Shown: positions 35,052-64,000 of the stretch, piece by piece
Layout of the letters: every line of letters begins with the position of its first letter
Position numbering within the stretch: position 1 is the first letter of the stretch
DNA from: Thermoanaerobaculia bacterium
GTDB taxonomy: Bacteria > Acidobacteriota > Thermoanaerobaculia > Gp7-AA8
Direction of reading: 5' to 3'
Length of the DNA stretch: 64,000 nucleotides
Assembly: GCA_036399695.1 (NCBI GenBank)
Contig: DASWMP010000345.1
Coordinates: 1,478-65,477, forward strand
The notes under the pieces: model-generated
The model's database searches: none
The model's input: only the letters and a program-made list of their open reading frames with translations
What the model was told of the DNA's origin: nothing
Made by a program: the position numbers and the translations under genes

Positions 35052-37207
35052 GCAGCGTCGACGGCAAGGCGGTCGGCACTCCGCGGCGCGTTCCGGTGAT
35101 CGCGCTGATCGTGCTGGTGCTGGCGGTCGGCGTGGGAAGCGCGTTCGTGCGGCTGGCGGACCGCCGCAGCGTGGAGAACCGGCGGCGCGTGGCCTCGGAG
35201 GCGGCGGCGGCGGCGACGGTGCGCATCGAGAGACAGATCGACGCCGCCTTTGCCGCCGCGTCGATCGTGGCCGCGCTGCTGCGTGCGCGCGGCGATGCGG
35301 ACGTGAACACCATCGCCGCAGAGGCCGTGCAGCGGGGAGGCGTCGCCGGCATCGAAGTCGTCGCCGCCACGGCCGTCCCGGCGCCGCCCGGGGCGAGCAC
35401 GGTCCTGATGATGTCGGAGTCGCGGCAGTTGCGAGCCTGCGTGCGCGTGGCGCCGGCGGACCCCCGCTTCGCCGTGGCCATCCTCGACCTGCCGGAGCTG
35501 CTGGCGCGGAGCGGCGTCGACGAGCTGCCGTCGGACGGATACGACTACCAGCTCGTGGCCTCCGGCGCCGCCGCCTCGGGGCGCGCTTTCGTGGTGGCGC
35601 GGTCCTCACCGCTCGAGCTCGCGGAGCCGGTGCGCTCCTCCTTCGCGGTCCCGCAGGGGCGCTGGACGCTCGACGTGGCGCGGCGCGCCGGCTGGCGGAT
35701 GGCGGGAGAGCGGACGCGGGAAATCGCCATCGTCCTGATCGGCAGCCTCCTCTTCGCCCTGTTCGTCTACGACCTGCTGCGGCGGCCGTACGTGCTGGAG
35801 CGGGAAGTCGAGCTGCGCACGCGCAAGATCGTGGAGACGAATCGCCGCCTCACGGCGGAGATCGAGCAGCGGCAGCGTGCCGAGGAGCAGGTCGTCCACG
35901 AGGCCACGCACGACCGGCTGACCGCGCTGCCGAACCGCGTTTACCTGCGCGACCGGATCACGCGCGCCCTCGACCGGGCCCGGTCGGCCAACGCCGTCGG
36001 CTTCGGCGTGCTCGTGATCGACATCGACCGCTTCACCGACGTGAACGACGGGCTCGGACACGACATCGGGGACGAGCTGCTGACCCTCGCGGCGCGGCGC
36101 CTCCAGAGCTGCATCCGCTTCGGCGACGTCCTGGCGCGCGTCGGCGGTGACGAGTTCGCGATCCTCTCGCTGGCCATCGATCCGGCGGAGATCACCGGCG
36201 TGGCCCGCCGGGCGCACGAGGCGCTGGAAGTGCCGTTCGAGGTGGGCGGGCACCGCGTGCAGATGTCGGGCAGCATCGGCATCGCTCTGAGCGCGAGCGG
36301 CTACACCGTCGCCGACGAGCTGCTGCGCGACGCCTATCTGGCCGTGCATCGGGCGCGGCAGCAGGGGGGCGCGTCGCACGTCCTGTTCGACCCGAAGATG
36401 CACGAGCAGGCCGCGGCGGCCCAGCAGATCGAGACGGAGCTGCGCGCCGCGCTCGCGGGCAACGAGCTGCGGCCGTACTTTCAGCCGATCGTCTCCCTCA
36501 CGACCGGGCGCATCACCGGCTTCGAGGCCCTCGTGCGCTGGATCAGCCCGAAGCGGGGCTTCGTCTCCCCCGCCGCGTTCATTCCGGTGGCGGTGTCGAG
36601 CGGCCTGATCATCCCGCTGGACCAGTGGATGATGCGCGAAGCAGCGCGGCAGGTGCACGAGTGGAACAGCCGCCTGCAGCTCGAGCCGCCCCTGACGATC
36701 AGCGTGAACGTCTCCGGCCGCCGGCTCGGGCAGCGCGAGCTGATCGAGGACGTGGCCCGCACGCTCCGCGAGACCGGCATCGACACCCGCTCCCTGCGCC
36801 TGGAGATCACGGAGGGGGAGATGATGGAGCGGCCGGACGAGGTGCTGGCGATCCTGACGGAGCTGAAGCGGATGAACATCACGCTCCTGGTCGACGACTT
36901 CGGCACCGGCTATTCGTCGCTGAGCTACCTGCACAGCTTCCCGATCGACGTCGTCAAGATCGACCAGTCGTTCGTCCGCCGGATGCTGGAGAGCGGCAAG
37001 GACGAGGAGATCGTCCGCGCCGTCATCAACCTGAGCGCCACGCTCGGCCTGCGGGTGATCGCCGAAGGCATCGAGACCGCCGGCCACCTCGCGCGCCTGC
37101 GCGAGCTCGGCTGCGACTACGGCCAGGGCTACCTCTTCTCGAAGCCGGTCGACGCCGCCGCGATCGAAGCCCTGCTGGCGACCAATCCGTCGTGGATTGA
37201 GGATTGA
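35049..37207 (+). CDS. Membrane sensor diguanylate cyclase/phosphodiesterase (GGDEF-EAL)
   Basis: Two TM helices bracketing a periplasmic domain. GGDEF 'RVGGDEFAIL'. EAL 'FEALVRW', 'DDFGTGYSSLSYL'. The final codons (SWIED*) are encoded by the heptamer hairpin. Confidence 0.85.
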
Positions 37208-37324
37208 GGATTGAGGATTGAGGATTGAGAATTGAGGATTGAGGATTGAGGATGGCTGCGCTCCAGGCACCCGGGTCGCCCGAGCGCAGCCAATCCTCAG
37301 TTCTCAATCCTCAATCCTCAATCC
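37194..37324. repeat. Hairpin of family C with heptamer-repeat arms: (GGATTGA)x8 ... (TCAATCC)x4
   Basis: ggattgaggattgaggattgaggattgagaattgaggattgaggattgagg ... cctcagttctcaatcctcaatcctcaatcc; it overlaps the stop codon of the GGDEF-EAL gene. Confidence 0.7.
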
Positions 37325-37359: not shown

Positions 37360-39234
37360 ATGGCGCGCCGTACGAGTGACTACGCTGCCACCGGGAAGCC
37401 GCAGCACTCGTTGCGGGAGCGGTTTGGCGCGTTGCGGAACCTGCCGCCGTTTCTGCGGCTGATCTGGCAGACCAGCCGCTCGCTCACGGTCACGAATGCA
37501 GTGCTGCGGCTGCTGCGGGCGTTTCTGCCGGTGGCGCTGCTCTTCGTCGGGAAGCTGATCATCGACGAGGTGATCCGCCTGGCGTCAGCGGGCGGCGCTC
37601 CAGCCACCCCGCTGGAGTGGTGGGCCTCCGGGCGTGTCGACCGGCTGGCGATGCTGATCGGGCTGGAGCTGGGCATCGCCATACTCTCGGACGTGATCGG
37701 GCGCATCGTCTCGCTGGTGGACTCGCTGCTCTCGGAGCGCTTCACGAACGAGACGAGCATCCGCCTGATGGAGCATGCGGCCACGCTCGACCTCGAGGAC
37801 TTCGAGGACAGCGAGCTGCAGGACCAGCTCGAGCGGGCACGCCGCCAGACGATGGGGCGCAGCTCGCTGCTCACACAACTGCTGGCGCAGGCGCAGGACG
37901 CCGTCACGATCATCGCCTTCGCGGCCGGCCTCATCGCCTACGCTCCCTGGCTGATCCTTCTCCTCGGCATTGCTCTCATCCCCGCCTTCCTCGGCGAGGC
38001 GCACTTCAACGCCGCCAGCTACACGCTCAACTACACGCGCACCCCGGAGCGGCGCGAGCTCGATTACGTCCGCCAGACCGGCGCCGGCGTCGAGACGGCG
38101 AAGGAAGTGAAGATCTTCGGCCTCAACGCCTTCCTCCTCGAGCGCTACCGCATGCTCGCCGATGCTTTCTATCGGGCGAACAAGTCGCTCTCCGTGCGGC
38201 GCGCCTTCTGGGGGAGCGTGCTGACGGCAATCGGCACGCTCGGCTACTACGTGGCGTACGGCTACCTGGCCTGGGGCACGCTGAGCGGCGACTTCACGAT
38301 CGGCGACCTGACGTTCCTGGCCGGCTCGTTCCGCAGGCTGCGCACGCTGCTCGAAGGGCTGCTCACCGGCTTCTCGCAGATGGCCGGGCAGGCGCTGTAT
38401 CTCGACGACCTGTTCTCGTTCTTCCTCATCGAGCCGGAGATCACCTCCCGGCCGGACGCGCTCCCCTTCCCTCGGCCGATGCAGGAGGGGCTGCGCTTCG
38501 AGAACGTCGGCTTCCGCTATCCCGGCGCGGAGCGGTGGGCGGTGCGGAACCTCACGTTTACGCTGCGGGCCGGCGAGGTCGTCGCGCTCGTGGGGGAGAA
38601 CGGCGCGGGGAAGACGACGCTCGTGAAGCTGCTGGCGCGGCTCTACGATCCGGACGAAGGACGGGTGCTGGTCGACGGCCGCGATCTGCGCGAGTACGAC
38701 CTGGAGTCGCTGCGCTCGAACATCGGCGTCATCTTCCAGGACTTCGTGCGCTATCACCTGACGGCGGCGGAGAACATCGCCGTGGGGCGGATCGAAGCGG
38801 CCGGGGACCGGGCGCGGATCGAGACGGCGGCGCGGCGCAGCCTGGCGGACGAGGTGATCCTCCGTCTGCCGAAGCAGTACGACCAGCCGCTCGGGAAGCG
38901 CTTCCGCAAGGGGGTTGAGCTGTCGGGCGGCGAGTGGCAGAAGATCGCCATCGCCCGGGCCTACATGCGGGACGCGCAGCTCCTGATTCTGGACGAGCCG
39001 ACGGCGGCGCTGGATGCGCGGGCGGAGTTCGAGGTGTTCCAGCGCTTCCGTGAGCTGAGCTCCGGCAGGACGACGGTGCTGATCTCGCACCGGTTCTCGA
39101 GCGTGCGCATGGCCGATCGCATTCTCGTGCTGGCGGACGGGCAACTCGAGGCTGCCGGGACGCACGAGGAGCTGCTGGCGGCAGGGGGGCGGTATGCGGA
39201 GTTGTTTGAACTGCAGGCGGAGGGGTATCGGTGA
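37360..39234 (+). CDS. ABC transporter, fused permease/ATPase (MsbA-like exporter family)
   Basis: Six-TM N-terminal domain. Walker A 'GENGAGKTT'. ABC signature 'LSGGEWQKIAIARA'. Walker B 'LLILDEPTAALD'. Confidence 0.85.
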   Translation: MARRTSDYAATGKPQHSLRERFGALRNLPPFLRLIWQTSRSLTVTNAVLRLLRAFLPVALLFVGKLIIDEVIRLASAGGAPATPLEWWASGRVDRLAMLIGLELGIAILSDVIGRIVSLVDSLLSERFTNETSIRLMEHAATLDLEDFEDSELQDQLERARRQTMGRSSLLTQLLAQAQDAVTIIAFAAGLIAYAPWLILLLGIALIPAFLGEAHFNAASYTLNYTRTPERRELDYVRQTGAGVETAKEVKIFGLNAFLLERYRMLADAFYRANKSLSVRRAFWGSVLTAIGTLGYYVAYGYLAWGTLSGDFTIGDLTFLAGSFRRLRTLLEGLLTGFSQMAGQALYLDDLFSFFLIEPEITSRPDALPFPRPMQEGLRFENVGFRYPGAERWAVRNLTFTLRAGEVVALVGENGAGKTTLVKLLARLYDPDEGRVLVDGRDLREYDLESLRSNIGVIFQDFVRYHLTAAENIAVGRIEAAGDRARIETAARRSLADEVILRLPKQYDQPLGKRFRKGVELSGGEWQKIAIARAYMRDAQLLILDEPTAALDARAEFEVFQRFRELSSGRTTVLISHRFSSVRMADRILVLADGQLEAAGTHEELLAAGGRYAELFELQAEGYR

Positions 39235-39244
39235 CGTGGGGGAG

Positions 39245-39351
39245 TGCTGAATCGATGTTCAATGCTGAATGCTGAATGTTGAATGCTGAACAAGGCGACG
39301 GCCACTCACGAGCACTTCAACATTCAACATTCAGCATTGAACATTGACGCT
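39245..39351. repeat. Hairpin of family C with (TGCTGAATG)-type repeat arms
   Basis: gctgaatcgatgttcaatgctgaatgctgaatgttgaatgctgaa ... ttcaacattcaacattcagcattgaacattga. Confidence 0.65.
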
Positions 39352-39735
39352 GATCTCACCCCATTCGGTCGATCGCTCGCGGAGTCTTTGCTTTGCCTCC
39401 CCGAGTCTTCGATTGAAGTGACCCCAATCATTCAGTCGTTCGCGGAGTCTTCGCTTTGACTCCCGGAGTCTTCGATTGATATCGCCCATGTCATTCGCTC
39501 GTTCGCGGAGTCTTTGCTTTGCCTCCCCGAGTCTTCGATTGATATCGGCCCATATCAATCGTTCGTTCGCGGAGTCATTGCTTTGACTCGCGGAGTCTTC
39601 AATTGATATCGCCCCATATCAATCGTTCGCTCGCGGAGTCTTCGCTTTGACTCCCGGAGTCTTCGATTGATATCGGCCCATATCATTCGGTCGTTCGCGG
39701 AGTCTTTGCTTTGACTCCCGGAGTCTTCGAGTGAG
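39352..39735. repeat. Tandem repeat, about 6 copies of a roughly 63-bp unit
   Basis: Units such as cccatatcaatcgttcgttcgcggagtcattgctttgactcgcggagtcttcaattgatatcgg repeat head-to-tail. Each unit carries an internal cggagtcttcg duplication. The whole unit is conserved, with no unique spacers. Confidence 0.7.
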
Positions 39736-39814
39736 CTCGGCCCTGTCAATCGCATGCTCGCCGAGGCCAGTGATGGACTCGCCGGGGCCGCGGTTGACGT
39801 CGGTGGGGCCTGGC

Positions 39815-43111: not shown

Positions 43112-43306
43112 CGGGGGCCCGGGGGTCGGGGCCCGGGGCTCGGGGCTCAATGGCGTTGACTTTAGATGTGGGACAGACACTCTTATCTGTCCCGTGCACC
43201 CGAACGGCCGCTTTGTCTGGAGGACCTCCGGGGTGGGCCGGACAGACAGGAGTGTCTGTCCCACATGAGGCAAACCTCTAAGTCAACGCCATTGGGGCCC
43301 AGGGCC
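43112..43306. mobile_element. MITE-like element of family B, copy 3 (inverted relative to copy 2)
   Basis: Its reverse complement matches 34004-34190 almost base-for-base, including ttgacttagaggtttgcctcatgtgggacagacactcctgtctgtcc. Confidence 0.7.
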
Positions 43307-44119
43307 CTAGTGCACGTCGGTGCGCATGCGCATGCTGGCCATGTAGTTGCGGCGGACGCGCTCGCGGTAGTGGTGGGTGCGGGCGGTGACGCGCTGCAGG
43401 TAGTTCTGCGTCTCGGGGAACGGCGGGATGCCGCCGTGGCGGCTCACGTTGCCTTCACCGGCGTTGTAGGCGGCCAGGGCCAGGTTCGGATCGTCGAAGC
43501 GCTGGAGCAGGTACGCCAGGTACTTCGTGCCGGCGGCGATGTTCTCCTGCGGGTCGAACGGATCGGAGACGCCGAGGAGCGTCGCGGTGCTGGGGATGAT
43601 CTGCATCAGGCCCTGCGCGCTCTTGTTCGACACGAGGCGCGGGCGGAAGTCGGACTCCGTCGAGACGACGGCGGCGATCAGCTCGGGGTCGAGCCCCTGG
43701 CGCTGCGCTTCGCGGTAGATGATGTCGCCGTACGGCACCTGCGTGCGGAAGAACTCTTCCTTCGCCACTTCGAGGGAGAGCGTGCGGCCCGCGGGCTCGG
43801 CCTGCGGCGCGAGCAGCGCTTCGCGGCTTTTGCGCGTCGTGAAAATCGGGAAGGTGTTGTTTTGCGTGACCGAAGCACTCCGGGTGACGGCGGCGCGCTG
43901 CAGGAAGTCGAAGTTGAGGCTCGTGGCATCGGAGGGGATGCCGAGCGCGCCGAAGGCGAGAGGAACACCGAGGAGCACGGCGACACCGCGGGATGCGGCT
44001 TTGAAGGCCAGGCGCCAGCGGCTGGCGTGGCGGCGTGCTTCGACCTGGCAGTTGCAGATGACGCGAAAGTCGTCTGCATGTTTGCGGCTGGTGCGGCGTC
44101 TACTGTCGTCGGACTTCAT
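43307..44119 (-). CDS. Membrane-anchored lytic transglycosylase (SLT domain)
   Basis: 'VVSTESDFRPRLVSNKSAQGLMQIIPSTA' and 'AAYNAGEGNV' SLT motifs. N-terminal TM helix 'AVLLGVPLAFGALGI'. Confidence 0.7.
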   Translation of the reverse strand: MKSDDSRRRTSRKHADDFRVICNCQVEARRHASRWRLAFKAASRGVAVLLGVPLAFGALGIPSDATSLNFDFLQRAAVTRSASVTQNNTFPIFTTRKSREALLAPQAEPAGRTLSLEVAKEEFFRTQVPYGDIIYREAQRQGLDPELIAAVVSTESDFRPRLVSNKSAQGLMQIIPSTATLLGVSDPFDPQENIAAGTKYLAYLLQRFDDPNLALAAYNAGEGNVSRHGGIPPFPETQNYLQRVTARTHHYRERVRRNYMASMRMRTDVH

Positions 44120-45133: not shown

Positions 45134-45251
45134 TCGATTCCGATCCCGTGGCGATGGTCAGTGGTCGGTGGTCAGTTGCTGGCGCTCCGTAGCCCAGGAA
45201 GTGGCCACCGAACGCGTTGCTAACCGACCACCGGCCACTGACCACCGCCGG

Positions 45252-45632: not shown

Positions 45633-45649
45633 GGGGCTCCTTTTTTTGA

Positions 45650-45733
45650 GTTGGCAGTTGGCAGTTGGCGGTTGGCAGTGTCGGAGCCAGAGTCTTTCTA
45701 CTGCCAACCGCCTACTGCCAACCGCCAACTAGC
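45650..45733. repeat. Hairpin of family C with (GTTGGCR)-repeat arms
   Basis: gttggcagttggcagttggcggttggcag ... ctgccaaccgcctactgccaaccgccaact; it contains the TAG stop of mtgA. Confidence 0.7.
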
Positions 45734-47572: not shown

Positions 47573-47573
47573 A

Positions 47574-47682
47574 GGGAACAGGGAACGATGGGACCTATGG
47601 GACAACCTATAGGACCTATAGGACCTATGAGCAGGCTGCCTGACTCCCATAGGTCCCATCTCCCATCTGTCCCATTTGTCCA
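47574..47682. repeat. Hairpin of family C with (ATGGGACCT)-type repeat arms
   Basis: gatgggacctatgggacaacctataggacctataggacctatgag ... ctcccataggtcccatctcccatctgtcccatttgtcc. A related copy lies inside lhr at 63318-63390. Confidence 0.65.
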
Positions 47683-47840
47683 AAGCGTCTCCACAGGATG
47701 GAGAGTGCCCCTGCGGTACCCCCACGCCGGCCGTCGATCGCGGAACCTTGGCGGGCGCGACCGGCTGAGGCGGGCACTCTCTACGATTCGTAGAGTTGGA
47801 ACACCCTCGGGCGCCGCGGAGTTAGATTGTGTCCTCAGCC

Positions 47841-51632: not shown

Positions 51633-52206
51633 CGACCGGCTCGTTGGCGCACTCCGGGCGCTCGCGGATGCGCTGAACGATCTGTCCGCGCCGTCGATGA
51701 TCATCGGCGGTATCGCCGTGATCGCGGCGGGCGTACCTCGACAGACGATCGACATCGACGCGACGATCCTGGGCCGCGCCACCAGTCCAGAAGATGTCCT
51801 CGCCACGCTCGAACGTCACGAGATCGTTCCCAGAATTTCCGACGCACTCGAGTTTGCCCGCGAGCGTCAGGTCCTTCTGCTCCAGCACTTCCCCAGCCGC
51901 GTCACGATCGAGGTGACATTCGCATGGCTGCCGTTCGAAGAAGACGCGCTGTCTCACGCGTTCGAAGTCGAGCTCCACGGTGTGCGCGTGCGCGTCGCGC
52001 GCCCCGAGGACCTCGTCATCTACAAGGCAGCGGCCTGGCGGGACCGGGATCGCTCAGATATCGAACGCCTGTTGGTCCTGCATCTGGATGACATCGACCT
52101 TTCGAGAATTCGTTCGCTCCTCAATGAGATCGCCGTGGCGCTGGATGATCCCCACCGGCTGGCCGCCTTCGACGCCATCGTGGATCGCGTTCGCCACGGC
52201 GCGTAA
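51622..52206 (+). CDS. Nucleotidyltransferase-fold (Pol-beta-like) protein
   Basis: GTG start after GGGGAG. 'MIIGGIAVIAAGVPRQTIDIDATI' matches the minimal NTase motif hG[GS]-x(n)-DhDh. Confidence 0.5.
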   Translation: MAADDRLVGALRALADALNDLSAPSMIIGGIAVIAAGVPRQTIDIDATILGRATSPEDVLATLERHEIVPRISDALEFARERQVLLLQHFPSRVTIEVTFAWLPFEEDALSHAFEVELHGVRVRVARPEDLVIYKAAAWRDRDRSDIERLLVLHLDDIDLSRIRSLLNEIAVALDDPHRLAAFDAIVDRVRHGA

Positions 52207-52287
52207 ACCCGTCTCGCCCTGCCGCCCGGATCGATCCATCACCGAGCGCTCTTGGTCTTGCTCGTTTCCCCGCTGCACAATACGGCC

Positions 52288-53259: not shown

Positions 53260-53302
53260 GGCGCCCGGAAGGCGGAAGGGCGCCCCGCGTGTTGATCCGG
53301 AC

Positions 53303-54700: not shown

Positions 54701-54847
54701 CAGTTGGCGGTTGGCGGTACGCGCGCTTCGCGCGCTCGCGGTTGGCGGTGGCTGAAACCGGGGCCAGCGGCGCTCTCCCGTCGTTGGGGGTTTCGGCTAC
54801 CGCCAACCGCCATCGCGCAAAGCGCGCGTACCGCCAACCGCCAACTG
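54701..54847. repeat. Long palindrome (about 147 bp) of family C with (GTTGGCG) arms
   Basis: cagttggcggttggcggtacgcgcgcttcgcgcgctcgcggttggcggtggctgaaacc ... ggtttcggctaccgccaaccgccatcgcgcaaagcgcgcgtaccgccaaccgccaactg. Confidence 0.7.
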
Positions 54848-54863
54848 ATTCACGGCACGGTCC

Positions 54864-56051: not shown

Positions 56052-56062
56052 TTAACGAGTCG

Positions 56063-56131
56063 GCAGTACGCGGTTGGCGGGAGGCAGGAGAACGGTTTCA
56101 CTGCCAACCGCCAACTGCCAACCGCCAACTT
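56063..56131. repeat. Imperfect hairpin of family C with (CCAACYG) arms
   Basis: cagtacgcggttggcgg ... ccgccaactgccaaccgccaact. Confidence 0.55.
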
Positions 56132-56142
56132 CAGGAGGAAGT

Positions 56143-56652
56143 GTGGCAACAGAAGTCCCGTGTCCCGAATGTGCAACGCCCCGCACCGATCTTTCGGTGG
56201 TCTGTCCCACGTGCGGCGCGCCGCCGGTCCGTCCGGGAGAACAGCGCGCCCTGACGGGCGAGGAAGTACGTGCGGCCGATCTCGAGCCCTACGTCACGCT
56301 GCGCTACATCGCGCGGCTGTTCAAGGTCTTCGCGATCCTCGTCATCGTGATGCTCATCGGCGAAGTCGTGACCGGTGTGGCGTCCGAAGGGCAGGGCGCT
56401 CTCTATACGCTCATCGGCGAAGCAACGCAGTTGCTCGTCCTGGCAGGCCTCATGTGGGCCGGCGGCGACGTGACGCTGCTGATCATCGACGCCGGCCATG
56501 ACCTCCGCGTCGCCCGCATCCTCCTCGGCCGCATCAACGCCGAGCTCCACCGCCGCGCCGGCGACACCGCCGACACCACCGCCGCCGACCGCCTGGCACC
56601 GCCGACCCTCGCGGAGAAGGCGGAGCGGAGGAGCGATCCGAACAGGCGTTGA
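56143..56652 (+). CDS. Zinc-ribbon (CPxC...CPxC) membrane protein
   Basis: AGGAGG 4 nt before the GTG. 'VPCPECATPRTDLSVVCPTCGAP', followed by a hydrophobic segment. Confidence 0.45.
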   Translation: MATEVPCPECATPRTDLSVVCPTCGAPPVRPGEQRALTGEEVRAADLEPYVTLRYIARLFKVFAILVIVMLIGEVVTGVASEGQGALYTLIGEATQLLVLAGLMWAGGDVTLLIIDAGHDLRVARILLGRINAELHRRAGDTADTTAADRLAPPTLAEKAERRSDPNRR

Positions 56653-56676
56653 GGCGCGCTCCGCGCGCGCAACGCG

Positions 56677-57516
56677 CTAGACGATCGCCCTCCCCATCAC
56701 TTCGCGCAGCTCCTTGAACACGTTCTCCGGCGGGATGCCGAGCTCGCGGTAGCCGGCGGCGCGGCGGAGGACGTTTTCGGCGGTCTTTTCGTCGAAGATG
56801 CGGCCGTCGACGGTGCGGTGGTTCAGCTCGCAGAAAGCCAGGAGGGCGGCCAGGGCGACGCGGCGGTTGCCGCCGCGGAAGGGGCGGGCCTGGAGGATGG
56901 CGAAGACGAAGGCCGCGACTTTGTCGGGGAACGTCGGGTACGCCTCCCGTCCGAGGGTGGTCAGTTGCGGGCGCTGGACGGCGTTCGCGAGGCCGAACTG
57001 CGACTCGACGAGACCGGGATGGGCGTGATTGCCCCCGAACTCCACGCTGACGGCGCGGTGGAGGTCCACCAGATCCTGCGCGTTGAGATAACGGACGCCG
57101 CCGTCAGTCTGCGAGGCGCCGGAAGGCGTTGGGGTACTTTTTGATGGCGCGCTCGTAGGCGCTGGCGATGACGGGATTGGAGATGGAGAAGTCTTCGTCG
57201 ACGGGAGCGGGACGGCTTTTGCCACGCGCTCCTTTGCCGTTGGCGGGGGCTGCGGGGGAGGAGGCGCTGCTTTGACCGGCGGCCGCGATTGGGCCGGCGC
57301 TGCTGCCTTTGCGGGCGGCTTTGCTGCCGCTTTCTGCGCCGCGGCCGGCTTCTTTGCCGCTGGCACCGGCGCTTTGACTGCTTTTGCTGGCTTTGCTGCT
57401 TTTGCCGGAGGCTTCGCCGCCGGTCGTGCCGGCGCTTTTGACGCCTTCGCCGGCTTTGCTGCTGCTTTTTTTCCCTGAGGTTTGGCTGGCTGATTTCGCT
57501 TTTGCTTGGTCGCCAT
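56677..57516 (-). CDS. Doc/Fic-family (death-on-curing) toxin-domain protein with a long Lys/Ala/Pro-rich N-terminal extension (N-terminus uncertain)
   Basis: Doc core 'VRYLNAQDLVDLHRAVSVEFGGNHAHPGLVESQFGLANAVQRPQ' and Fic-like 'ARPFRGGNRRVALAALLAFCELNH'. No in-frame start codon between 57100 and 57516 other than the ATG at 57516. Confidence 0.55.
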   Translation of the reverse strand: MATKQKRNQPAKPQGKKAAAKPAKASKAPARPAAKPPAKAAKPAKAVKAPVPAAKKPAAAQKAAAKPPAKAAAPAQSRPPVKAAPPPPQPPPTAKERVAKAVPLPSTKTSPSPIPSSPAPTSAPSKSTPTPSGASQTDGGVRYLNAQDLVDLHRAVSVEFGGNHAHPGLVESQFGLANAVQRPQLTTLGREAYPTFPDKVAAFVFAILQARPFRGGNRRVALAALLAFCELNHRTVDGRIFDEKTAENVLRRAAGYRELGIPPENVFKELREVMGRAIV

Positions 57517-57523
57517 GCTTCAT
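57104..57523 (-). CDS. Alternate-frame ORF: Ser/Lys/Gly-rich disordered protein with a structured C-terminus 'PVDEDFSISNPVIASAYERAIKKYPNAFRRLAD' (possible antitoxin)
   Basis: RBS GAGGGAC 4 nt before the ATG. Ends exactly where the Doc core begins. Overlaps the extension of the 56677-57516 ORF in a different frame, so only one of the two readings can be fully real. Confidence 0.35.
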   Translation of the reverse strand: MKHGDQAKAKSASQTSGKKSSSKAGEGVKSAGTTGGEASGKSSKASKSSQSAGASGKEAGRGAESGSKAARKGSSAGPIAAAGQSSASSPAAPANGKGARGKSRPAPVDEDFSISNPVIASAYERAIKKYPNAFRRLAD

Positions 57524-57688
57524 TTGGTCCCTCAGACGACGAGTGTAGACCCGTTAACTCGTTGAGTCAATGCAGCTTACGCATGACTCAATTTCTGACC
57601 CGTCATTACGGGAAGGCGGACGATCCACTTAAGTCGCTGAAAGGAGACCACTTGCCGACCGGCAGCGAAGTGCACTACTTCGTGTGCA

Positions 57689-57982
57689 TCACTCCGGCAA
57701 TTCGGCGTCCGCTCCCCCGGCTGACCCATCCTCGTTGAGCGGCACCGGATCGATCGCCAGCAGCGCCTTCGCCTTCTCCGTCAGCGTGAACGTCTCCCGC
57801 GCGGCATCGGCCTCGAGGTACCCCTTCTCGACCAGCGCCAGCGCCGGCGCATCCCCACCCCCGGCCGGATGCCGGATCGCCTTGATGGCCGTAACCGGCA
57901 ACGACTCGACCGTCATGCGCCGAAACTCCTGCAGCACGCGGAGCTCCTGTGTGGTGAGGCCGTAGGGGAGGATGATTGGCAT
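57689..57982 (-). CDS. Small hypothetical ORF (97 aa)
   Basis: Moderately coding-like; no RBS; no recognised domain. Confidence 0.25.
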   Translation of the reverse strand: MPIILPYGLTTQELRVLQEFRRMTVESLPVTAIKAIRHPAGGGDAPALALVEKGYLEADAARETFTLTEKAKALLAIDPVPLNEDGSAGGADAELPE

Positions 57983-58051
57983 TTGGGGATTGTAGCGTGG
58001 TCGGGTTTGCGGCGTGTGGGGCTGCGTGGGGCGAGCACGGAAGAGGGGGGC

Positions 58052-58148
58052 TGTTTTTGGTTTTGGTTTTTGGTTGTTGGTGCTTCGCTATGCGAGGGCT
58101 CGGCGCGCGGCGCAGCACCAAAAACCCAAAACCAAAAACCAACAACTA
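58052..58148. repeat. Hairpin of family C with (TTTTGGT) arms
   Basis: gctgtttttggttttggtttttggttgttggtgcttcgc ... gcgcagcaccaaaaacccaaaaccaaaaaccaacaac. Confidence 0.65.
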
Positions 58149-58157
58149 CGTCGCGTG

Positions 58158-58964
58158 TCAGCGGAGCTGACACGCGGGACACCAAAACGTCACCCTCACA
58201 TCCCTTCCCTGCTTCGTCATCTCGATCTTCGTGCCGCATTTGCGGCAGGGGAGGGCGCGGCGGGCGTAGACGTAGAGGCGTTGGCCGCGGTCGAGGCTTC
58301 CGGTGGTTTCGCGGCCGCCGTTGCGTTTGTTCACGTTCATCTGCATCACGCGGCGGGCTACGCGCAGGAGCTCGTGGAGCTCTTCGTCCGTGACGCTTTC
58401 GACCTTCCGGAAAGGGCTGATGCCCCGCAGGAAGAGGAGCTCGGATTTGTACTCGTTGCCGATGCCGGAGACGACGCGCTGATTGAGGATCACGTCGGCG
58501 ATCTCTTCGTTGTTGCGGGCGCGGATGCGGCGGACGGCTTCGTCCGCGTCGAACGTTTCGCCGAGGAGATCGGGGCCGATCAGACGGAGATCGTCCTGCC
58601 GGGCCAGCGAGCGCGCGTCGTGGAACTCGGCCACCGGCACGTTGAAGGCGACGGCGACGAAGTCCTCCGTCGCCAGGACGATGCGCATGTCGCTGCGCGG
58701 CTTCCGCCACCGCTCCCCCGGACGGTAGATGTGCCACGAGCCGTTCATGCGCATGTGGGTGTGCAGATGCAGATCGCCCGAGAGCTCGATCAGCAGATTC
58801 TTGCCCGCCGCGCCGACGCGCTCGATCGTCCGCCCCGCGAGCGGCGCGTCTTCGTCGATCCGCGCGAGCTGCGGAAACACGGTCTCGAACCGCGTCACCT
58901 GCTTCCCCGCCAGCGCCTTGTGCAGCACCCGCGCGGCGCGGTGGATCGTGTCACCCTCGGGCAT
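58158..58964 (-). CDS. Fpg/Nei-family DNA glycosylase (formamidopyrimidine/endonuclease VIII-like)
   Basis: Start 'MPEGDTIHRAARVL' (catalytic Pro2/Glu3). H2TH region. C-terminal zinc finger 'CRKCGTKI...FWCPACQ'. Confidence 0.8.
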   Translation of the reverse strand: MPEGDTIHRAARVLHKALAGKQVTRFETVFPQLARIDEDAPLAGRTIERVGAAGKNLLIELSGDLHLHTHMRMNGSWHIYRPGERWRKPRSDMRIVLATEDFVAVAFNVPVAEFHDARSLARQDDLRLIGPDLLGETFDADEAVRRIRARNNEEIADVILNQRVVSGIGNEYKSELLFLRGISPFRKVESVTDEELHELLRVARRVMQMNVNKRNGGRETTGSLDRGQRLYVYARRALPCRKCGTKIEMTKQGRDVRVTFWCPACQLR

Positions 58965-59343
58965 GGAACGTCGGGTGGAGCGACAGGAACCGCCAGCCGC
59001 CCTCCTCCTGCACCAGCACGGCATTGATGCGATGCGCCAGCGCGTAGCGTTTGCCGTTCGGCGCCAGAGCGCCGTCGATCACCGCGTCCGCTTCGACGAC
59101 GACGGTGGCGTCGGACAACTCCCGCATTTGTATCGAGTCGACGCGGTACGTGCTCTCCCGCATCGTCTCCTCATGCTCCCGCCCCAGCAGCGCCGCCACC
59201 CCCTCCCGCCCGCTGGCGAACCGCCCCCACGGGTCCACCGCGCTCCCCTGCGCGGACCAGCACGCCGCCATCCGCGCAAGATCATGCGCGTTCCAGGCAG
59301 CAGAGAATTCGTCGAAAGCGGCGCGGATCTCGGGTTCGGTCAT
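58951..59343 (-). CDS. SnoaL/NTF2-like domain protein
   Basis: RBS AAAGGAG before the ATG 'MTEPEIRAAFDEFSAAWNAHDLARMAACW'. 14-nt overlap with the fpg start. Confidence 0.6.
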   Translation of the reverse strand: MTEPEIRAAFDEFSAAWNAHDLARMAACWSAQGSAVDPWGRFASGREGVAALLGREHEETMRESTYRVDSIQMRELSDATVVVEADAVIDGALAPNGKRYALAHRINAVLVQEEGGWRFLSLHPTFHARG

Positions 59344-59362
59344 GCGGCTCCTTTGATGATCT

Positions 59363-59437
59363 CGGAGTGCGGTGGCGGACGGACGCCACCGCTCGTTTAC
59401 ACGTGTAGCAGTGCGGTGGCGTTCGCCACCGCACTCC
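59363..59437. repeat. Two adjacent REP-like hairpins of family A
   Basis: ctcggagtgcggtggcggacggacgccaccgctc and cagtgcggtggcgttcgccaccgcactcc. Confidence 0.6.
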
Positions 59438-59452
59438 AAGAAGCGTCGTTTT

Positions 59453-62400
59453 CTACCCCGCCCTCAATTGATACCCCATTGCCGTGGGCACGAAACCCTC
59501 TTCCGCCAGAAATGGGGCCAGCGGGCTTCTGGCCACCGGTTCATCGTTCACGTCCACGATCAGCAGCGCCCGGCGGTGCCGCTCTCGCACGAGCGACGCC
59601 AGCGCCTTCGCCACCTCTTTCGCCACGCAGGAGCGCAGCGGCTCGTCTTCCGGCAGGAACAGCGACACCTGCTTCTCACCGCGGCTTACGTACGCGGACA
59701 TCATCCCGTTGACCAGCACCACGTGCGTGCCGACCGTGCGCGAGAGCCTCTCGGCCGTCTCCGGCCACTTGACGATCGTGCCGTAGGGATTCGCCGGGTC
59801 CGTCGAGGCCAGCATCACCGTCTCCGGCGTATCCGGCTCGTCGCGGAAACCGCGCAGCAGGTCGATGGCGCCGGCGGAGGTGAACTGCGTCGCGCCGAGG
59901 CCGGCGACGAAGTAGCCGCGGCGGATGCGTCCCGCTTCCTCCAGCGCCTTGAGGATCGGATAGACGGCGCTGAAGCCGCCGGCGATCCCTTCCGCGCCCG
60001 GCGCTTCGCGCGTCACGAGCCCGTAGCGATTGAGGAGCTGCTGCGCGACAGCGGTGGCGTGCTGCGTCTCGTTCGCCGCCGCCGTGCCGACCAGCGACCA
60101 GCGTCCCTGCGTCGACGCCGGGGCTACGCGGCGCGAGCGGAAGCCGGTCGCGCGCGGCTGCTTCGGCCGCGTGAAAGCGCGCAGCGCGTGGAACGTGTCG
60201 TTCGTGACCACGCCCTTCCAGACCAGGCTCCAGAGCGCGTCGACCAGCTCCGCCGGGAACCCGCCGACGGCGAGCTGCATCTGCGCGAAGAACGTGGCGC
60301 CCGAGGTGCGCAGATGCTCGACGATCTTCGTCTCCAGCTCCGTGAGGCCGGTTGGGCGGTTGGCGGTTGGGCGGTTGGGCGGAGGAGTGCCGACGGCGCC
60401 GCTGTTTGCCTCTGCCCAACCGCCCAACTGCCCAACCGCCCAACTGCTCCGATGCAGCATCGGCAGGTGATCCGTCAGGTACACGGCGATCCGGCCATCG
60501 CGCTCGCCCAGCGGCTCGACGCCGACCCAGACGATCTCGCCGGCAGTGCTGAGGGTGTCGAGGTCCGACGGCTTGTAGTCCTCGAGGCGCGCGTCGAGGA
60601 TCTCCGTCTCGAAGATCGAGGCCGCCATCGGATAGCCCTGCAGCGTCTCGATCGTCTCGAGCAGCGCGTCGAGGCCGCGACGCTTGCGGATGGCGTGCTG
60701 CCAGTGCGTGAACAGCCGCGCCAGCGCCGGCTGGTCGACCGGCTCCGCTTCCTTGCGCAGCTTGGCCAGCGCGCGGCGGCGGATGATGCGCAGCACGTCG
60801 GACTCGACCCACTCCCGCTGCGTGCCGCCCGGGCGGAAGTCCCCTTCGATGAGGCGTCCGCGCTCGACGAACTTCGCCAGCGTCGTGTTCACCACCGCCA
60901 CGCCGAGGCCGTAGCGGCCCGCCAGCTCGGCCGGCGTGAAGGGGCCGTGGCTGCGCGCGTAGCGGAGCACGAGATCCCCCGTGGCGTCGGCCACCGGCTG
61001 GAGGTAGCGCTCGGCGATGCCCTGCGGAAGCGGGACGCCGAGCGCATCGCGATAGCGGGACGCGTCCTCGATGGCGATGAAGCGTTTGTCGCGGGCGATC
61101 GTCACCTCGATGACGCGCCGCGCCTTCGTCAGCTCCGCGATCGACGGCGGCGCGTCGATGAGCGACCGCGCCGCGATCTCATCGACGCTGAGATCGCCGA
61201 GACGCAACAGCAGGTCGTGAATGCCGTCCGTGCTCTTCGCCTTGCGGTTCTCCACGAGATGCTGCAGCTCGAGCTCCGTCTGCTCGATCGAATCGGGATC
61301 GAGCAGCTCGCGCAGCTCCGGCTCGCCGAGGAGCTCGCGCAACTGGTTCTGGTCGATCGCCAGCGCCTGCGCGCGGCGTTCGGCCAGCGGCGCGTCGCCG
61401 TCGTAGAGGAAGTTCGCGACGTAGCGGAACAGCACCGCCGAGGCGAACGGCGACGGCTTGAGCGTGTCGGCCGTGACGACGCGGATCTGCCGCTCCCGGA
61501 TGCGCCGCATCATGTCCACCAGCGCCGGCACGTCGAACACGTCGCGCAGCACCTCGCGGTACGTCTCGAGAATCATCGGAAACGACCCGAAGCGCGACGC
61601 CACCTGCAGCAGGTCGTACGCCCGTTTGCGCTGCTGCCAGAGCGGCGTGCGGCCCTGCGGGCGGCGGCGCGGCAGCAGCAGCGCGCGGGCCGCCGCTTCG
61701 CGGAACTTCGCCGCGAACATCGACGTCGCGCCGAGCTGGCGCACCACGAGCTGCTCCACCTCGTCCGCATCCGGGATCATCAGCTCCGCGGGGGGCGGCT
61801 TCTCGGTCTCGGGGAAACGGATGATGAAGCCGTCGTCCGCCCACATCGTCTCCACGTCGATGGCCAGCTCGTTCCGCACCTTCGCCGCGACGGCCATGGC
61901 CCACGGCGCGTGAATGCGCCCGCCGAACGGCGAGAGCACGCAGACGCGCCAGTCCCCCAGCTCGTCCGTGACCCGCTCGACCACGACCGTGCGGTCATCC
62001 GGAATCGCGCCGGTGGCCTCGTGCTGATCGTCGAGGTACTGCAGCAGGTTCTGCGCGGCCAGGCGGTCGAGGTCGTGCTTCGCCGTCAGCGTGCGGATCG
62101 CATCCGCCGGCTTTGCGGCGCGCAGCTCGCGCACGAGCCGCCCGATCTCGAAGCCGAACGGCACAGTGCGCTCCGCGGAGTCGGCCTTCCAGAACGGCAT
62201 CTTGCCCGGTTGCCCCGGCGCCGGCGTGACGACGACGCGGTCGTGCGTGATCTCTTCGATGCGCCAGGTGGAGGCGCCGAGGACGAACGTCTCGCCGACC
62301 GAGGCCTCGAAGACCATTTCTTCGTCGAGCTCACCGACGCGCGCGCTGGACGTCTTCTCCGCCCCGGCCAGGAAGACGCCGTACAGCCCGCGGTCCGGGA

Positions 62401-64000
62401 TCGTGCCGCCGTTCGTGATGGCCACCCGCTTCGCCCCCTGCCGCGCCGTGACGGTGTTGGCCACGCGGTCCCACGTCAGGCGCGGGCGAAGCTCCGCGAA
62501 TTCGTCGGAAGGATAGAGCCCGGAGAGCATGTCCAGCACGCCGTCGAACGCGCCGCGGCTCAGCTCCGCGTACGACGCGGCGCGGCGGATGGCGCCGTAC
62601 AGATCGTCGACCGGCCAGTCGTCCATCGCCACCATGGCCACGAGGTGCTGGGCCAGGACGTCGAGCGGGTTGCGCGGATAGCGGGTCGGCTCGATGCTGC
62701 CCTCGTGCATGGCCCGCGTCACCGCCGCGCAGGCGACGAGATCGCCCCGGAACTTGGGAAAGATGATGCCGGCGCTGACGGCGCCGACGTGGTGGCTGGC
62801 CCGCCCGATGCGCTGCATCCCGGAAGCAATCGACGGCGGCGACTCGATCTGCACGACGAGGTCGATGGCCCCCATGTCGATCCCCAGCTCGAGCGACGAG
62901 GTGGCCACGAGCGCCGGCAGCCGTCCGGACTTCAGCGCGTCTTCGATCTCCACCCGCTGGGCCCGGGCGATCGACCCGTGATGCGCCTGGACGAGCGTCT
63001 CGCCGGCCAGCTCGTTGAGCGCCGCCGCCAGCCGCTCCGCAAGCCGCCGCGAGTTGACGAAGATCAGGGTCGAGGTGTGCTCGCGAATCAGCTCCAGCAG
63101 CCGCGGATGAATGGCCGGCCAGATCGACGGCCCCTTGAGCCCCTGCGCCGCCGGCCCGCTCGGGATCTCCGTGGCCTCCCCCACTTTGGCCATGTCCTCG
63201 ACCGGCACTTCCACCCGCAGCGAGAGCTTCTTCTTCTCCTCGGTGTTGATGATGGTGACGGGGCGGAAGCGGGCGCGCGTGGTGTCGGTGAATTCCTCCG
63301 CAATTTCCTCGGGGGATTCATGGGACCGATGGGACTCATGGGCTTCGCTCGGCCCAGCCATCTCTCCCATAGGTCCCATGGGTCCCATCGTGGCTTCACA
63401 CCCGCCGAGAAATCTCGCCACCTCCTCCAGCGGATGCTGCGTCGCCGAGAGGCCGATGCGCTGCGGTGGGACCTCACAGCGCATGGCCAGGCGCTCCAGC
63501 GAGAGGGCCATGTGCGCGCCGCGCTTGTTCGGGACCAGGGCGTGGATCTCGTCGATGATGAGCGTCTCCACGCCGAGCAGCGTCTCCCGGGCGTTCGAGG
63601 TCATCATCAGGTAGAGGGATTCGGGGGTGGTGATGAGGATGTCGGCCGGGTCGCGCAGGAAGCGGGCGCGCTCGCTCTGCGGGGTATCGCCGGTCCTGAT
63701 GGCCAGCTCCGGCACGACGAATTCATCCCCTCGGCTGCCCGCGACGTTGGAGATCCCGGCCAAAGGGGCGCGCAAATTGCGCTCGACGTCCACAGCCAGC
63801 GCTTTCAGGGGTGAGACATAGACGACACGACAACGCTTTTCCTTCGCCGGACGGGGCCGGAACATCAGCCGGTCGAGCGCCCAGAGGAACGCCGTGAGCG
63901 TCTTGCCGCTGCCCGTGGGGGCCGTAATGAGCGTCCATTGGCCGGCCGCGATGGCAGGCCAGCCCAGCGACTGCGCGCGCGTCGGGCCGCTGAACGAGGA
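59453..64000 (-). CDS. lhr: Lhr-like large ATP-dependent helicase (5' end beyond the window)
   Basis: Upstream of the track ORF's 'MFRP', translation continues '...WTLITAPTGSGKTLTAFLWALDRL' (Walker A) to the window edge. 'VYVSPLKALAVD', 'LIIDEIHAL' (DExH), helicase C domain and Lhr C-terminal region follow. It contains two in-frame palindrome insertions. Confidence 0.9.
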   Translation of the reverse strand, partial: SSFSGPTRAQSLGWPAIAAGQWTLITAPTGSGKTLTAFLWALDRLMFRPRPAKEKRCRVVYVSPLKALAVDVERNLRAPLAGISNVAGSRGDEFVVPELAIRTGDTPQSERARFLRDPADILITTPESLYLMMTSNARETLLGVETLIIDEIHALVPNKRGAHMALSLERLAMRCEVPPQRIGLSATQHPLEEVARFLGGCEATMGPMGPMGEMAGPSEAHESHRSHESPEEIAEEFTDTTRARFRPVTIINTEEKKKLSLRVEVPVEDMAKVGEATEIPSGPAAQGLKGPSIWPAIHPRLLELIREHTSTLIFVNSRRLAERLAAALNELAGETLVQAHHGSIARAQRVEIEDALKSGRLPALVATSSLELGIDMGAIDLVVQIESPPSIASGMQRIGRASHHVGAVSAGIIFPKFRGDLVACAAVTRAMHEGSIEPTRYPRNPLDVLAQHLVAMVAMDDWPVDDLYGAIRRAASYAELSRGAFDGVLDMLSGLYPSDEFAELRPRLTWDRVANTVTARQGAKRVAITNGGTIPDRGLYGVFLAGAEKTSSARVGELDEEMVFEASVGETFVLGASTWRIEEITHDRVVVTPAPGQPGKMPFWKADSAERTVPFGFEIGRLVRELRAAKPADAIRTLTAKHDLDRLAAQNLLQYLDDQHEATGAIPDDRTVVVERVTDELGDWRVCVLSPFGGRIHAPWAMAVAAKVRNELAIDVETMWADDGFIIRFPETEKPPPAELMIPDADEVEQLVVRQLGATSMFAAKFREAAARALLLPRRRPQGRTPLWQQRKRAYDLLQVASRFGSFPMILETYREVLRDVFDVPALVDMMRRIRERQIRVVTADTLKPSPFASAVLFRYVANFLYDGDAPLAERRAQALAIDQNQLRELLGEPELRELLDPDSIEQTELELQHLVENRKAKSTDGIHDLLLRLGDLSVDEIAARSLIDAPPSIAELTKARRVIEVTIARDKRFIAIEDASRYRDALGVPLPQGIAERYLQPVADATGDLVLRYARSHGPFTPAELAGRYGLGVAVVNTTLAKFVERGRLIEGDFRPGGTQREWVESDVLRIIRRRALAKLRKEAEPVDQPALARLFTHWQHAIRKRRGLDALLETIETLQGYPMAASIFETEILDARLEDYKPSDLDTLSTAGEIVWVGVEPLGERDGRIAVYLTDHLPMLHRSSWAVGQLGGWAEANSGAVGTPPPNRPTANRPTGLTELETKIVEHLRTSGATFFAQMQLAVGGFPAELVDALWSLVWKGVVTNDTFHALRAFTRPKQPRATGFRSRRVAPASTQGRWSLVGTAAANETQHATAVAQQLLNRYGLVTREAPGAEGIAGGFSAVYPILKALEEAGRIRRGYFVAGLGATQFTSAGAIDLLRGFRDEPDTPETVMLASTDPANPYGTIVKWPETAERLSRTVGTHVVLVNGMMSAYVSRGEKQVSLFLPEDEPLRSCVAKEVAKALASLVRERHRRALLIVDVNDEPVARSPLAPFLAEEGFVPTAMGYQLRAG
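60350..60447. repeat. Hairpin of family C with (GTTGGGC) arms, lying in-frame inside lhr
   Basis: ggttgggcggttggcggttgggcggttgggcgg ... cccaaccgcccaactgcccaaccgcccaactg. Encodes '...GTPPPNRPTANRPTG...' within the helicase ORF without breaking the frame. Confidence 0.7.
63318..63390. repeat. Hairpin of family C with (ATGGGAC) arms, lying in-frame inside lhr
   Basis: tcatgggaccgatgggactcatggg ... cccataggtcccatgggtcccatcg. Encodes 'MGPMGPMGEMAGPSEAHESHRSHESP' in frame. Confidence 0.7.

Follow-up and report, generated by a model that had tools for sequence, protein, structure and literature searches.

A metagenome-assembled genome (MAG) of the Thermoanaerobaculia (Acidobacteriota) carries, in the 64-kb stretch analysed here (67% GC; hereafter the window), a set of hairpins of 70-220 nt whose arms are built from tandem units of 7-9 nt. 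We found that these tandem-armed hairpins recur across the class, fall into families by unit sequence, lie close to stop codons, have been gained and replaced at orthologous sites, and show no RNA-type bias in their stem mismatches. They survive where an insertion costs little: directly past stop codons, in spacers of convergent or co-directional genes and, with the reading frame kept, in disordered linkers between domains such as two of Lhr. The same permissive sites hold different families in different lineages or stay empty. The account that we lean towards, as somewhat the likelier one, is that the hairpins are lineage-wide non-coding palindromic elements resembling repetitive extragenic palindromic (REP) sequences, their hairpin-forming dimers (REPINs) and miniature transposable elements bounded by inverted repeats (MITEs), that they spread at the DNA level, and that slippage remodels the 7-9 nt microsatellites of their arms. 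The Thermoanaerobaculia are soil Acidobacteriota that are abundant and have hardly been cultured; the repeat architecture is class-wide in them, and the literature that could be searched yielded no account of it for either Thermoanaerobaculia or Acidobacteria.

Hairpins of the window, their arms and families

An earlier note on this DNA had listed nine sites as palindromes with arms of tandem short repeats, and all nine prove to be such hairpins. Tandem Repeats Finder placed arrays of complementary units, paired within 20-65 nt, at each of the listed coordinates (37194/37291, 39261/39316, 45649/45703, 47588/47645, 54703/54799, 56100, 58053/58117, 60349/60414 and 63313/63365); examples are GGATTGA x8.6 at 37194 facing CAATCCT x4.9 at 37291, AGTTGGC x4.4 at 45649 facing GCCAACC at 45703, and the unit CGGTTGGG at 60349 facing GCCCAACC at 60414. 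An inverted-repeat scan gave arms of 28-59 nt that are 77-97% complementary. When ten elements were folded as single-stranded DNA against 200 dinucleotide shuffles each, every one formed a single long hairpin (z -3.8 to -11.7; Table 1) and 0 of 200 shuffles was equally stable. Scanning the window for ungapped palindromes (score >=14) returned 15 long hairpins, six of them tandem-armed under a strict rule, as compared with one and none in a composition-matched shuffle. The nine-site list was nevertheless incomplete, having missed the elements at 29417, 34007, 43114 and 45150, the first two of which lie beyond its reported range. Its view that the architecture is constant stands in so far as all copies form one architectural class, with departures at 56063, where the left arm is degenerate, and at 54701, where about two units occupy each arm end. 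As for the proposal that several copies supply the stop codon of the adjacent gene, the stop of the GGDEF-EAL gene does lie inside the units and that of mtgA overlaps an arm by 2 nt, but the VWA stop merely abuts its hairpin.

Table 1. Tandem-armed hairpins, related arrays and the host Lhr-type gene in the window (z, folding stability relative to shuffles)
Feature	Coordinates	Arms or structure	Context	z
Hairpin	37194..37324	(GGATTGA)8.6 / (CAATCCT)4.9; inner GC-rich stem GGCTGCGCTC..GAGCGCAGCC	Last four GGDEF-EAL codons and TGA (...TGG ATT GAG GAT TGA, stop 37205-37207) within first two units; end 35 nt upstream of ABC-transporter start	-10.4
Hairpin	39238..39361	(AATGCTG/AATGTTG)n	3 nt past ABC-transporter stop (39232-39234)	-9.1
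Hairpin	45150..45249	(TGGTCAG/TGGTCGG)n	Whole spacer between convergent NAGPA (+) and DUF7144-like (-) genes	-6.0
Hairpin	45649..45730	(AGTTGGC/GGTTGGC)n	Final 2 nt of arm on mtgA stop TAG (45729-45731, minus strand)	-10.3
Hairpin	47574..47690	9-nt units ATRGGACNN	Between CutA1 stop (47570-47572) and UvrA start	-4.6
Hairpin	54701..54847	59-nt arms: GTTGGCG units and nested palindrome ACGCGCGCTTCGCGCGC mirrored in both	Begins 1 nt past VWA stop (54698-54700); stop outside hairpin	-11.7
Hairpin, degenerate	56063..56130	GTTGGCR; left arm degenerate		-4.3
Hairpin	58053..58146	(GTTTTTG/GTTGTTG)n	Downstream of Fpg stop (minus strand)	-5.2
Hairpin	60347..60447	8-nt units CGGTTGGG/CAGTTGGG	In frame in Lhr, encodes ..SSWAVGQLGGWAEANSGAVGTPPPNRPTANRPTG..	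-8.3
Hairpin	63313..63388	9-nt units ATGGGACNN	In frame in Lhr, encodes ..MGPMGPMGEMAGPSEAHESHRSHES..	-3.8
Composite hairpin, 220 nt	29417..29636	Outer arms (GGGCTCG)4 / (CGAGCCC)4, inner arms unique sequence	Between amidohydrolase stop and cobalamin-riboswitch leader	
Unpaired array	34007-34035 (with MITE-like neighbour, 34007..34180)	(GGGSYCG)4 without complementary arm	Abuts MITE-like element (terminal inverted repeat GGCATTGACTT..AAGTCAACGCC, inner inverted repeat ATGTGGGACAGACAC)	
Arrays	43114..43307	(GGGGCYC)5 ... (GGGGCCC)2	Flank inverted copy of 34007-type MITE-like element	
Lhr-type helicase gene, 1470 aa	59453..63865		Hosts two in-frame hairpins in inter-domain linkers	

The window's ABC-transporter protein is matched exactly in three contigs, from ENA (ERZ27253094), JGI (3300034139) and Logan (SRR10954982). 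Contigs L001, L002 and L003 agree with the window in every base of the hairpins at 37194 and 39245, L001 does so too at 45150, 45650 and 47574, and no hairpin difference was seen among the three near-identical contigs over the hairpins that each covers. Because the hairpins agree base for base in three independent assemblies, an assembly artefact is ruled out. The only place where the window differs from L001 is an array at 39369-39752, made of about six tandem copies (86% matches) of a 64-nt unit, each with a small hairpin GGAGTC..GACTCC, and this array therefore behaves as a variable-number tandem repeat.

The arms themselves record how they change. Copy numbers are unequal between the two arms at 37194, where the variant unit GAATTGA/GAACTGA is mirrored in both; at 60347 one arm is homogenised to CGG units and the other alternates CAG and CGG; and at 54701 a 20-nt palindrome is mirrored within both arms. 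Such unequal numbers, homogenisation and mirrored variants point to slippage at the DNA level and to copying from arm to arm. To that extent the slippage suggested earlier is borne out; the arms are inverted copies of a sequence that was already heterogeneous.

Each copy was also said to have a unit of its own, which does not hold within the window: GTTGGCR is common to four copies (45649, 54701, 56063 and 60347), ATRGGACNN to two (47574 and 63313, with three more copies in L004 and one in L005) and GGGGCYC to three (29417, 34007 and 43114). Among all loci compared, we counted about 27 distinct unit families, many without a run of three G, with period 7 dominant and 8, 9 and one of 10 also present. 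Unit 6-mers were common to two hairpins nine times more often within a locus than between loci (Fisher p=0.0025, small n). In contig L031 there are three GGGAGTG/GGGTGTG copies; two of those sites carry GGGAGTC/GGGTGTC in its relative L045 (90% nt identity), and one of the L031/L045 sites is empty in L020 and L033. Members of the AAGGATG, ATRGGAC, GAGTTGC and GTTGTCG/TGGTCAG families turn up in several genomes, each time at another locus. In the GTTGGCR family the copies have the ends AGTTGG..CCAACT and loops that differ save for a short purine-rich GAAA-type motif at the loop edge, and ATRGGAC copies end in GGGAACGAT.

A polarity runs through the set, the 5' arm having more G than C in 37 of 42 tandem-armed hairpins (by unit family, about 21 versus 5), and plain hairpins follow the same trend (54 versus 26). 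We rejected a replication-strand effect on logical grounds, since the reverse complement of a palindrome keeps its polarity, so that neither leading or lagging strand nor gene strand can be responsible; the polarity must reflect a process that acts on a single strand from 5' to 3', be it synthesis, co-transcriptional folding or Rho loading. The supply of stop codons offers a weak explanation in tandem-armed hairpins (0.93 versus 0.50 frames closed, p=0.04) and runs the opposite way in plain ones, so we did not adopt it. Two accounts start from the G-rich arm. According to one, modelled on what has been proposed for the G-rich heptamers of Xanthomonas and Nostoc, that arm would be functional as a G-quadruplex or i-motif repeat and the hairpin secondary; the 37 of 42 polarity, the G3-4 tracts of GGGGCTC, GGGGAGT and ATGGGAC and the G-quadruplex that GGGAATC forms in vitro (Rehm et al. 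2015, PMC4692102) are in line with it. Yet AATGCTG, GGATTGA, GTTTTTG, AGAAGTT and AAGGATG have no G3 tract or even GG, the G-rich arm is paired in a duplex hairpin, and Rehm et al. saw no regulatory effect (PMC4692102), all of which makes this account extremely improbable here. According to the other, to which we give a slim chance, the hairpins would be written de novo: at a break or nick in a permissive site, a telomerase-like, Prim-Pol or reverse-transcriptase activity with a genome-encoded template would add one G-rich unit of 7-9 nt repeatedly to both 3' ends, which would then be joined. If true, this would yield a palindrome with the G-rich arm 5' on both strands, genome-specific 'dialects' of units common to dispersed sites, variable loops and no target-site duplication. 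A LigD Prim-Pol gene does lie in the window (52246-53259), and nothing ties LigD Prim-Pol to the repeats.

Distribution and placement

Lhr relatives in one-genome-per-species contigs place the source in the Thermoanaerobaculia. The distribution of the hairpins was surveyed in a comparison set of 80 Lhr loci, each plus or minus 10 kb. Tandem-armed hairpins numbered 32 in 652 kb of Thermoanaerobaculia, six in 411 kb of Vicinamibacteria and none in 479 kb of Acidobacteriaceae, and shuffled sequence of the surveyed loci gave none. By gene context, 49 hairpins are co-directional, 32 convergent, seven divergent and 27 inside open reading frames (ORFs), mostly at Lhr sites; these contexts come from a crude gene caller based on third-position GC content and include some errors, such as L009 14056, initially called intragenic and actually located in the VWA 3' spacer. 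The median distance from the facing stop codon to the hairpin is 12-14 nt, many hairpins overlap the stop, and loops measure 8-79 nt.

This placement, about 12 nt past stops and seldom between divergent genes, is what would be expected of selected structural signals, that is, of stem-loops kept at gene ends as terminators lacking a U-tract, as blocks to 3' exonucleases or as insulators, with their sequence free to drift. Some hairpin is present at the VWA 3' end in most relatives, with differing sequences, and canonical T-tract terminators occur at shuffle level, so that another 3'-end signal may operate. We nevertheless regard this account as distinctly unlikely. Copies sit at four or more in-frame Lhr sites and within an operon junction of 3 nt, places at which terminating transcription would do harm, many orthologous sites are empty, REPs are placed alike without being terminators (PMC3733652), and selection on the stem explains neither the tandem-unit arms nor the families. 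Canonical rho-independent terminators are ruled out, because no hairpin has a T-tract and none is found among the terminator-like sites, which themselves equal the shuffle expectation in number. A terminator or attenuator role, which the earlier note had offered for checking, is thus not borne out; any role as an mRNA 3' stem-loop would be a by-product and not the reason for the hairpins' existence, given that copies inside ORFs and at the operon junction argue against terminating or stabilising as the general reason.

The stems give a further indication. Selection for RNA pairing would enrich G:U on the transcribed strand, and the sense-strand mismatches show no such excess, with G:T 32 versus A:C 37 overall and 10 versus 15 in tandem-armed hairpins; RNA-level selection on the stems therefore finds no support, and arm complementarity looks DNA-level. 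Searches against Rfam matched no family to the hairpins, the sole match in the window being a cobalamin riboswitch at 29201-29378. Integron attC sites were ruled out as well, as housekeeping genes on either strand flank the hairpins, no integrase is present, and some copies fall within an ORF. Phase-variable C-termini are excluded by the GGATTGA array, all frames of which reach TGA within three units, so that copy number cannot switch the protein. CRISPR arrays were likewise considered and dismissed.

Gains and replacement at orthologous sites

Two of the hairpins are not intergenic, a point that the earlier note had missed, and the 1470-aa minus-strand ORF that hosts them is of Lhr type by its Pfam domains (DEAD, Helicase_C, WH_Lhr, DEAD_assoc and WH2-4_Lhr). 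The hairpin at 63313-63388 (site 1) falls between DEAD and Helicase_C and that at 60347-60447 (site 2) between WH3 and WH4, and the alignment to Mycobacterium smegmatis Lhr (7LHL) breaks exactly at both (query 159->234 versus chain 225->242, and query 1137->1175 versus chain 1178->1188). Site 1, which joins the RFLGG motif to the (F)RPVTI motif, is filled by a strong hairpin in most orthologues from Thermoanaerobaculia; the reading frame is kept in every case, and the stems are unrelated between orthologues (ATGGGAC, GGGGAGT, GGGAGTC, AGGGACG, GGTTGCCC, GTCGTCGAG and the REPIN-like GCGGCGGGCTTCAGCCCGCCGC); five orthologues have no insert and a linker of 10-14 aa. Among L013, L014 and L056, close relatives on an Lhr tree with about 90% nt identity, one and the same codon carries a GGGGAGT hairpin in the first, is empty in the second and carries an unrelated hairpin in the third. 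Site 2 is empty in 33 of 36 Thermoanaerobaculia orthologues, with a linker of 16-27 aa, and is filled by three mutually unrelated hairpins in the window, L029 and L060. The empty orthologues include L004, the nearest species to the source among Lhr relatives in one-genome-per-species contigs (Lhr 90% aa identity), and the window copy is therefore a gain. In other genomes, further in-frame hairpins occur within the gene at about nt 2670, 3450 and 4055. Palindromic elements thus build protein linkers in a DNA-repair helicase, with inserts of 20-45 aa at four or more Lhr sites. A milder idea is that occupancy of the Lhr linkers might be functional, a hairpin-processing helicase being coupled to a hairpin in its own gene.

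Another, widespread palindromic family, with the ends GTCATCC(T/C)GAGCG..CGCTCAGGATGAC, also enters Lhr linkers in frame, at L029 9984-10068 and 10795-10876 and at site 2 of L060, where it encodes peptides such as VILSRADGEGP...SFASLRMTP, and it is intergenic in L033, L005, L015 and L111. Entering genes in frame is therefore a general trait of the small palindromes of these genomes.

Five of the six sites that can be compared between the window and L004 (87% nt identity) differ. Outside Lhr, the hairpin at 56063 is missing in L004; in relatives the site is mostly a 3-nt spacer between a stop codon and a ribosome-binding site, with no insert of hairpin size in 10 of the 11 that were mapped, so that the window copy is a polarised gain within an operon junction. 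Both polarised gains, at 60347 and 56063, are of the GTTGGCR family, two further copies of which lie in the window. At the 3' end of Fpg (the 58053 site) L004 has a plain 15-bp hairpin, and 1.4 kb from there, at L004 10658, lies a GTTGTTGG/GTTTTCGG element homologous to the one at 58053 in the window; the two occupy different loci and have in common the inner stem GGTGCTyCGCTrTGCG..GCGCAGCACC. The UvrA 3' end carries a 125-nt ATAGGAC hairpin in L004 and a 17-nt hairpin in the window. At the VWA 3' end, L004 has an unpaired ATGGGAC array, and across more relatives the site is either empty or carries one of at least five unrelated repeat-armed hairpins (units GTTGGCG, GGGTTCCTC, GGTGTCA, AGGTAAA, and GTTGCCC with GTTGTCG). 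The next gene begins only 10-20 nt beyond the mtgA stop in most relatives, and some have unpaired arrays or other hairpins there that begin on the stop codon. A metagenome scan with MtgA for relatives of 93-99% identity, in which fresh insertions might be seen, returned nothing above 81% aa identity.

These comparisons also bear on an origin in situ without transposition, in essence what the earlier note had proposed, in which a microsatellite would arise by slippage beside a stop codon or small hairpin, be inverted by a fold-back template switch, and then be turned over and corrected from arm to arm. Unpaired arrays on stops ((GAGCTGTT)n in L089, L102, the VWA 3' end of L004) and the unpaired array at 34007 in the window are in line with such a process; the unequal arms, the homogenisation within one arm at 60347 and the mirrored palindrome at 54701 fit it; some orthologous sites are nearly always occupied; and the unit at Lhr site 1 shifts gradually within a clade (GGGGAGT, GGGTGTG, GGGAGTC) with the arms still complementary. 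What it leaves unexplained is why new insertions match a unit family found elsewhere in the genome, why the GTC variant appears at two dispersed L045 sites as against GTG at the same sites of L031, why L004 has a homologue of a whole element at a different locus, and why unrelated, empty and tandem states occur at one codon in three close relatives. Purely local, hairpin-primed generation is not supported, failing on the family-matched gains, the dispersed families and the 58053/L004 homologue, and we consider an in-situ origin unlikely as the overall account. It may account for some of what is seen: sites that are persistently occupied, units that change gradually within a clade, and arrays that sit unpaired on stops.

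Mode of spread, precedents and neighbouring features

In our favoured account of REP-, REPIN- or MITE-like elements, copies would spread at the DNA level as single-stranded hairpins, with an enzyme of the HUH or REP-associated tyrosine transposase (RAYT) type as the candidate mobiliser. That type is proposed because no target-site duplication is visible at six filled/empty comparisons (window versus L004; L020/L031/L045/L033; L013/L014/L056), where 87-90% identity blurs the junctions. After insertion, replication slippage would expand, contract and homogenise units within an arm, and template switching inside the hairpin may keep the two arms complementary. The earlier note had set its templated origin against ordinary REP amplification, a contrast that is not supported here, as the elements act like REPs, REPINs or MITEs in their 3'-end placement, dispersed families and polarised gains. 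Several observations count against our account. Pfam scans of the window found no transposase or RAYT (Y1_Tnp) among its approximately 49 ORFs, and inspection of the element ends found no constant GTAG/CGTC tag, with sporadic CGTC, which is common in DNA of 67% GC. No target motif is conserved at filled versus empty sites, again with blurred junctions. Copies of a family share arms and short loop-proximal motifs and not the whole loop, unlike classical MITEs, and the many unit families in one genome are awkward for a single sequence-specific enzyme. A permutation test of mirrored unit order gave a combined p=0.06, underpowered at three to five units per arm, and the near-constant occupancy of Lhr site 1 and the VWA 3' end could instead reflect turnover in situ or structural selection.

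The closest precedents are the GGGAATC repeat of Xanthomonas and the intragenic REPs of repair genes. In the former, convergent tandem heptamer arrays capable of forming a stem-loop number 70-75 pairs per genome and lie on average 28 nt from where the upstream ORF ends; divergent ORFs seldom have them in between, their length and sequence differ among related species, and neither a function nor an origin is known for them (Rehm et al. 2015, PMC4692102). Our hairpins likewise consist of two convergent, closely spaced tandem arrays, with G-rich units and period 7 dominant, near the 3' end of the upstream ORF and rarely between divergent ORFs, and the G-rich arm is 5' on both strands. They differ from the Xanthomonas repeats, which have essentially one unit, GGGANTN, with a G3 tract, in the coexistence of dozens of unrelated units of 7, 8 or 9 nt, many of them without G tracts; moreover, they belong to another phylum, and in-frame linker copies and same-site replacement were not described for Xanthomonas. 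REPs are found less than 20 bp from 3' ends, at times contribute the stop, and are under-represented where neighbouring genes diverge (Di Nocera et al. 2013, PMC3733652); intragenic REPs are in frame, contribute 20-30 aa and are concentrated in DNA-repair genes, one site in recB being common to two Xanthomonas species (PMC3733652). REPs and REPINs form genome-specific palindrome families whose dimers make long hairpins (PMC3733652; Bertels & Rainey 2011, PMC3116915). The placement at 3' ends, the depletion between divergent genes and the in-frame copies in a repair gene are all matched here, whereas REPs measure 20-40 bp with a fixed sequence and a GTAG/CGTC tag, and the hairpins have microsatellite arms of 20-60 nt and no tag. 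Ordinary REP- or REPIN-like families (GGAGTGCGGTGGCG, GGCGGGCTTCAGCCCGCC) occur in the same genomes as the repeat-armed hairpins. Set beside MITEs, the arms act as terminal inverted repeats, the inner stem and a portion of the loop are common to two copies, and target-site duplications are not seen at the six filled/empty comparisons.

Two other systems invite comparison. The palindromic elements of Rickettsia, which Ogata et al. are said to have described in 2000 as in-frame palindromic repeats at structurally permissive positions of protein genes, are AT-rich and 100-150 bp long with a fixed sequence; the hairpins here differ in their tandem-unit arms and lineage. In quasi-palindrome template switching (the Ripley model and the E. 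coli assays of the Lovett laboratory), one arm templates the other, and arm-to-arm concerted change is seen here too; unlike an element family, quasi-palindrome correction is a mutational process that places no copies at new loci. REP-like palindromes, inverted heptamer arrays and in-frame palindromic inserts are thus each known, and what is new is the combination of many 7-9 nt unit families, their class-wide distribution, replacement at hot spots and the building of Lhr linkers. The hairpins link the inverted heptamer arrays of Xanthomonas with REP-like elements and suggest that 'palindromic microsatellites' recur across phyla, and their natural series of different, empty and gained sites could serve to study where REP-like palindromes come from, how they move and what keeps their arms complementary. 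In practical terms, they lengthen or cut ORF ends, lead gene callers astray in MAGs of high GC, and probably cause contigs to break.

Repeat-armed hairpins also occur in predicted viral contigs of IMG/VR (58% GC), with TGGCARTTGGCGG-type arms at L180 4737-4856 and 6758-6892 and at L213 10007-10114, and are therefore not limited to the loci studied. A phage link was rejected, as (GTTGGCR)3 was found in 64 viral contigs, mostly outside hairpins, and (GGATTGA)3 in nine, with no hairpin.

Several other repeats accompany the tandem-armed hairpins. A MITE-like family of about 125-140 nt, with the terminal inverted repeat AATGGCGTTGACTT and the inner inverted repeat ATGTGGSACAGACACTC, has copies at 34040-34180 and 43150-43300 in the window, at L022 21249-21371 and at L050 18379, 21653 and 23914. 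The genes between the copies in L050 and L022, examined by gene coordinates alone, gave no pointer to a transposase. The two window copies are in opposite orientation, each beside GGGGCYC heptamer arrays; at 43114 the arrangement looks like a nested insertion into a repeat-armed hairpin, and synteny with the same-species contig L002 is lost at 34037, within the left copy. A REP-like family with the core GGAGTGCGGTGGCG..CGCCACCGCACTCC lies at 10584-10664, 27287-27323 and 59360-59441, with a variant at 19746-19917 and similar copies in relatives (e.g. L025 4379, and L007). A perfect 42-nt inverted repeat at 25265-25412 (100% complementary, 64-nt loop) follows a GIDA-family (PF01134) gene and has relatives of the form GGGCGCC.CCGRCGGGCCGGCG.GGCCGGC at L007 2891, L015 2842 and L025 5817. 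Upstream of a sulfatase gene, the block at 18252-18543 contains 21- and 42-nt tandem repeats with an inverted partner (18356-18384 / 18515-18543) and represents a different, longer-period repeat type.

Among the neighbouring genes, a DNA-repair cluster at 47829-63865 comprises UvrA, a LigD primase-polymerase domain, an Fpg/Nei glycosylase (58158-59024) and Lhr, with no demonstrated link to the repeats. The cobalamin riboswitch (minus strand; RF00174, 74.5 bits) precedes a TonB-dependent receptor gene (27339-29372), and the composite hairpin at 29417-29636 is immediately upstream of it. Lastly, a segment of about 0.9 kb at 51349-52246, missing in L004, contains a DUF6036/AbiEii-like nucleotidyltransferase gene (51622-52206) and is probably a small island of toxin-antitoxin type.

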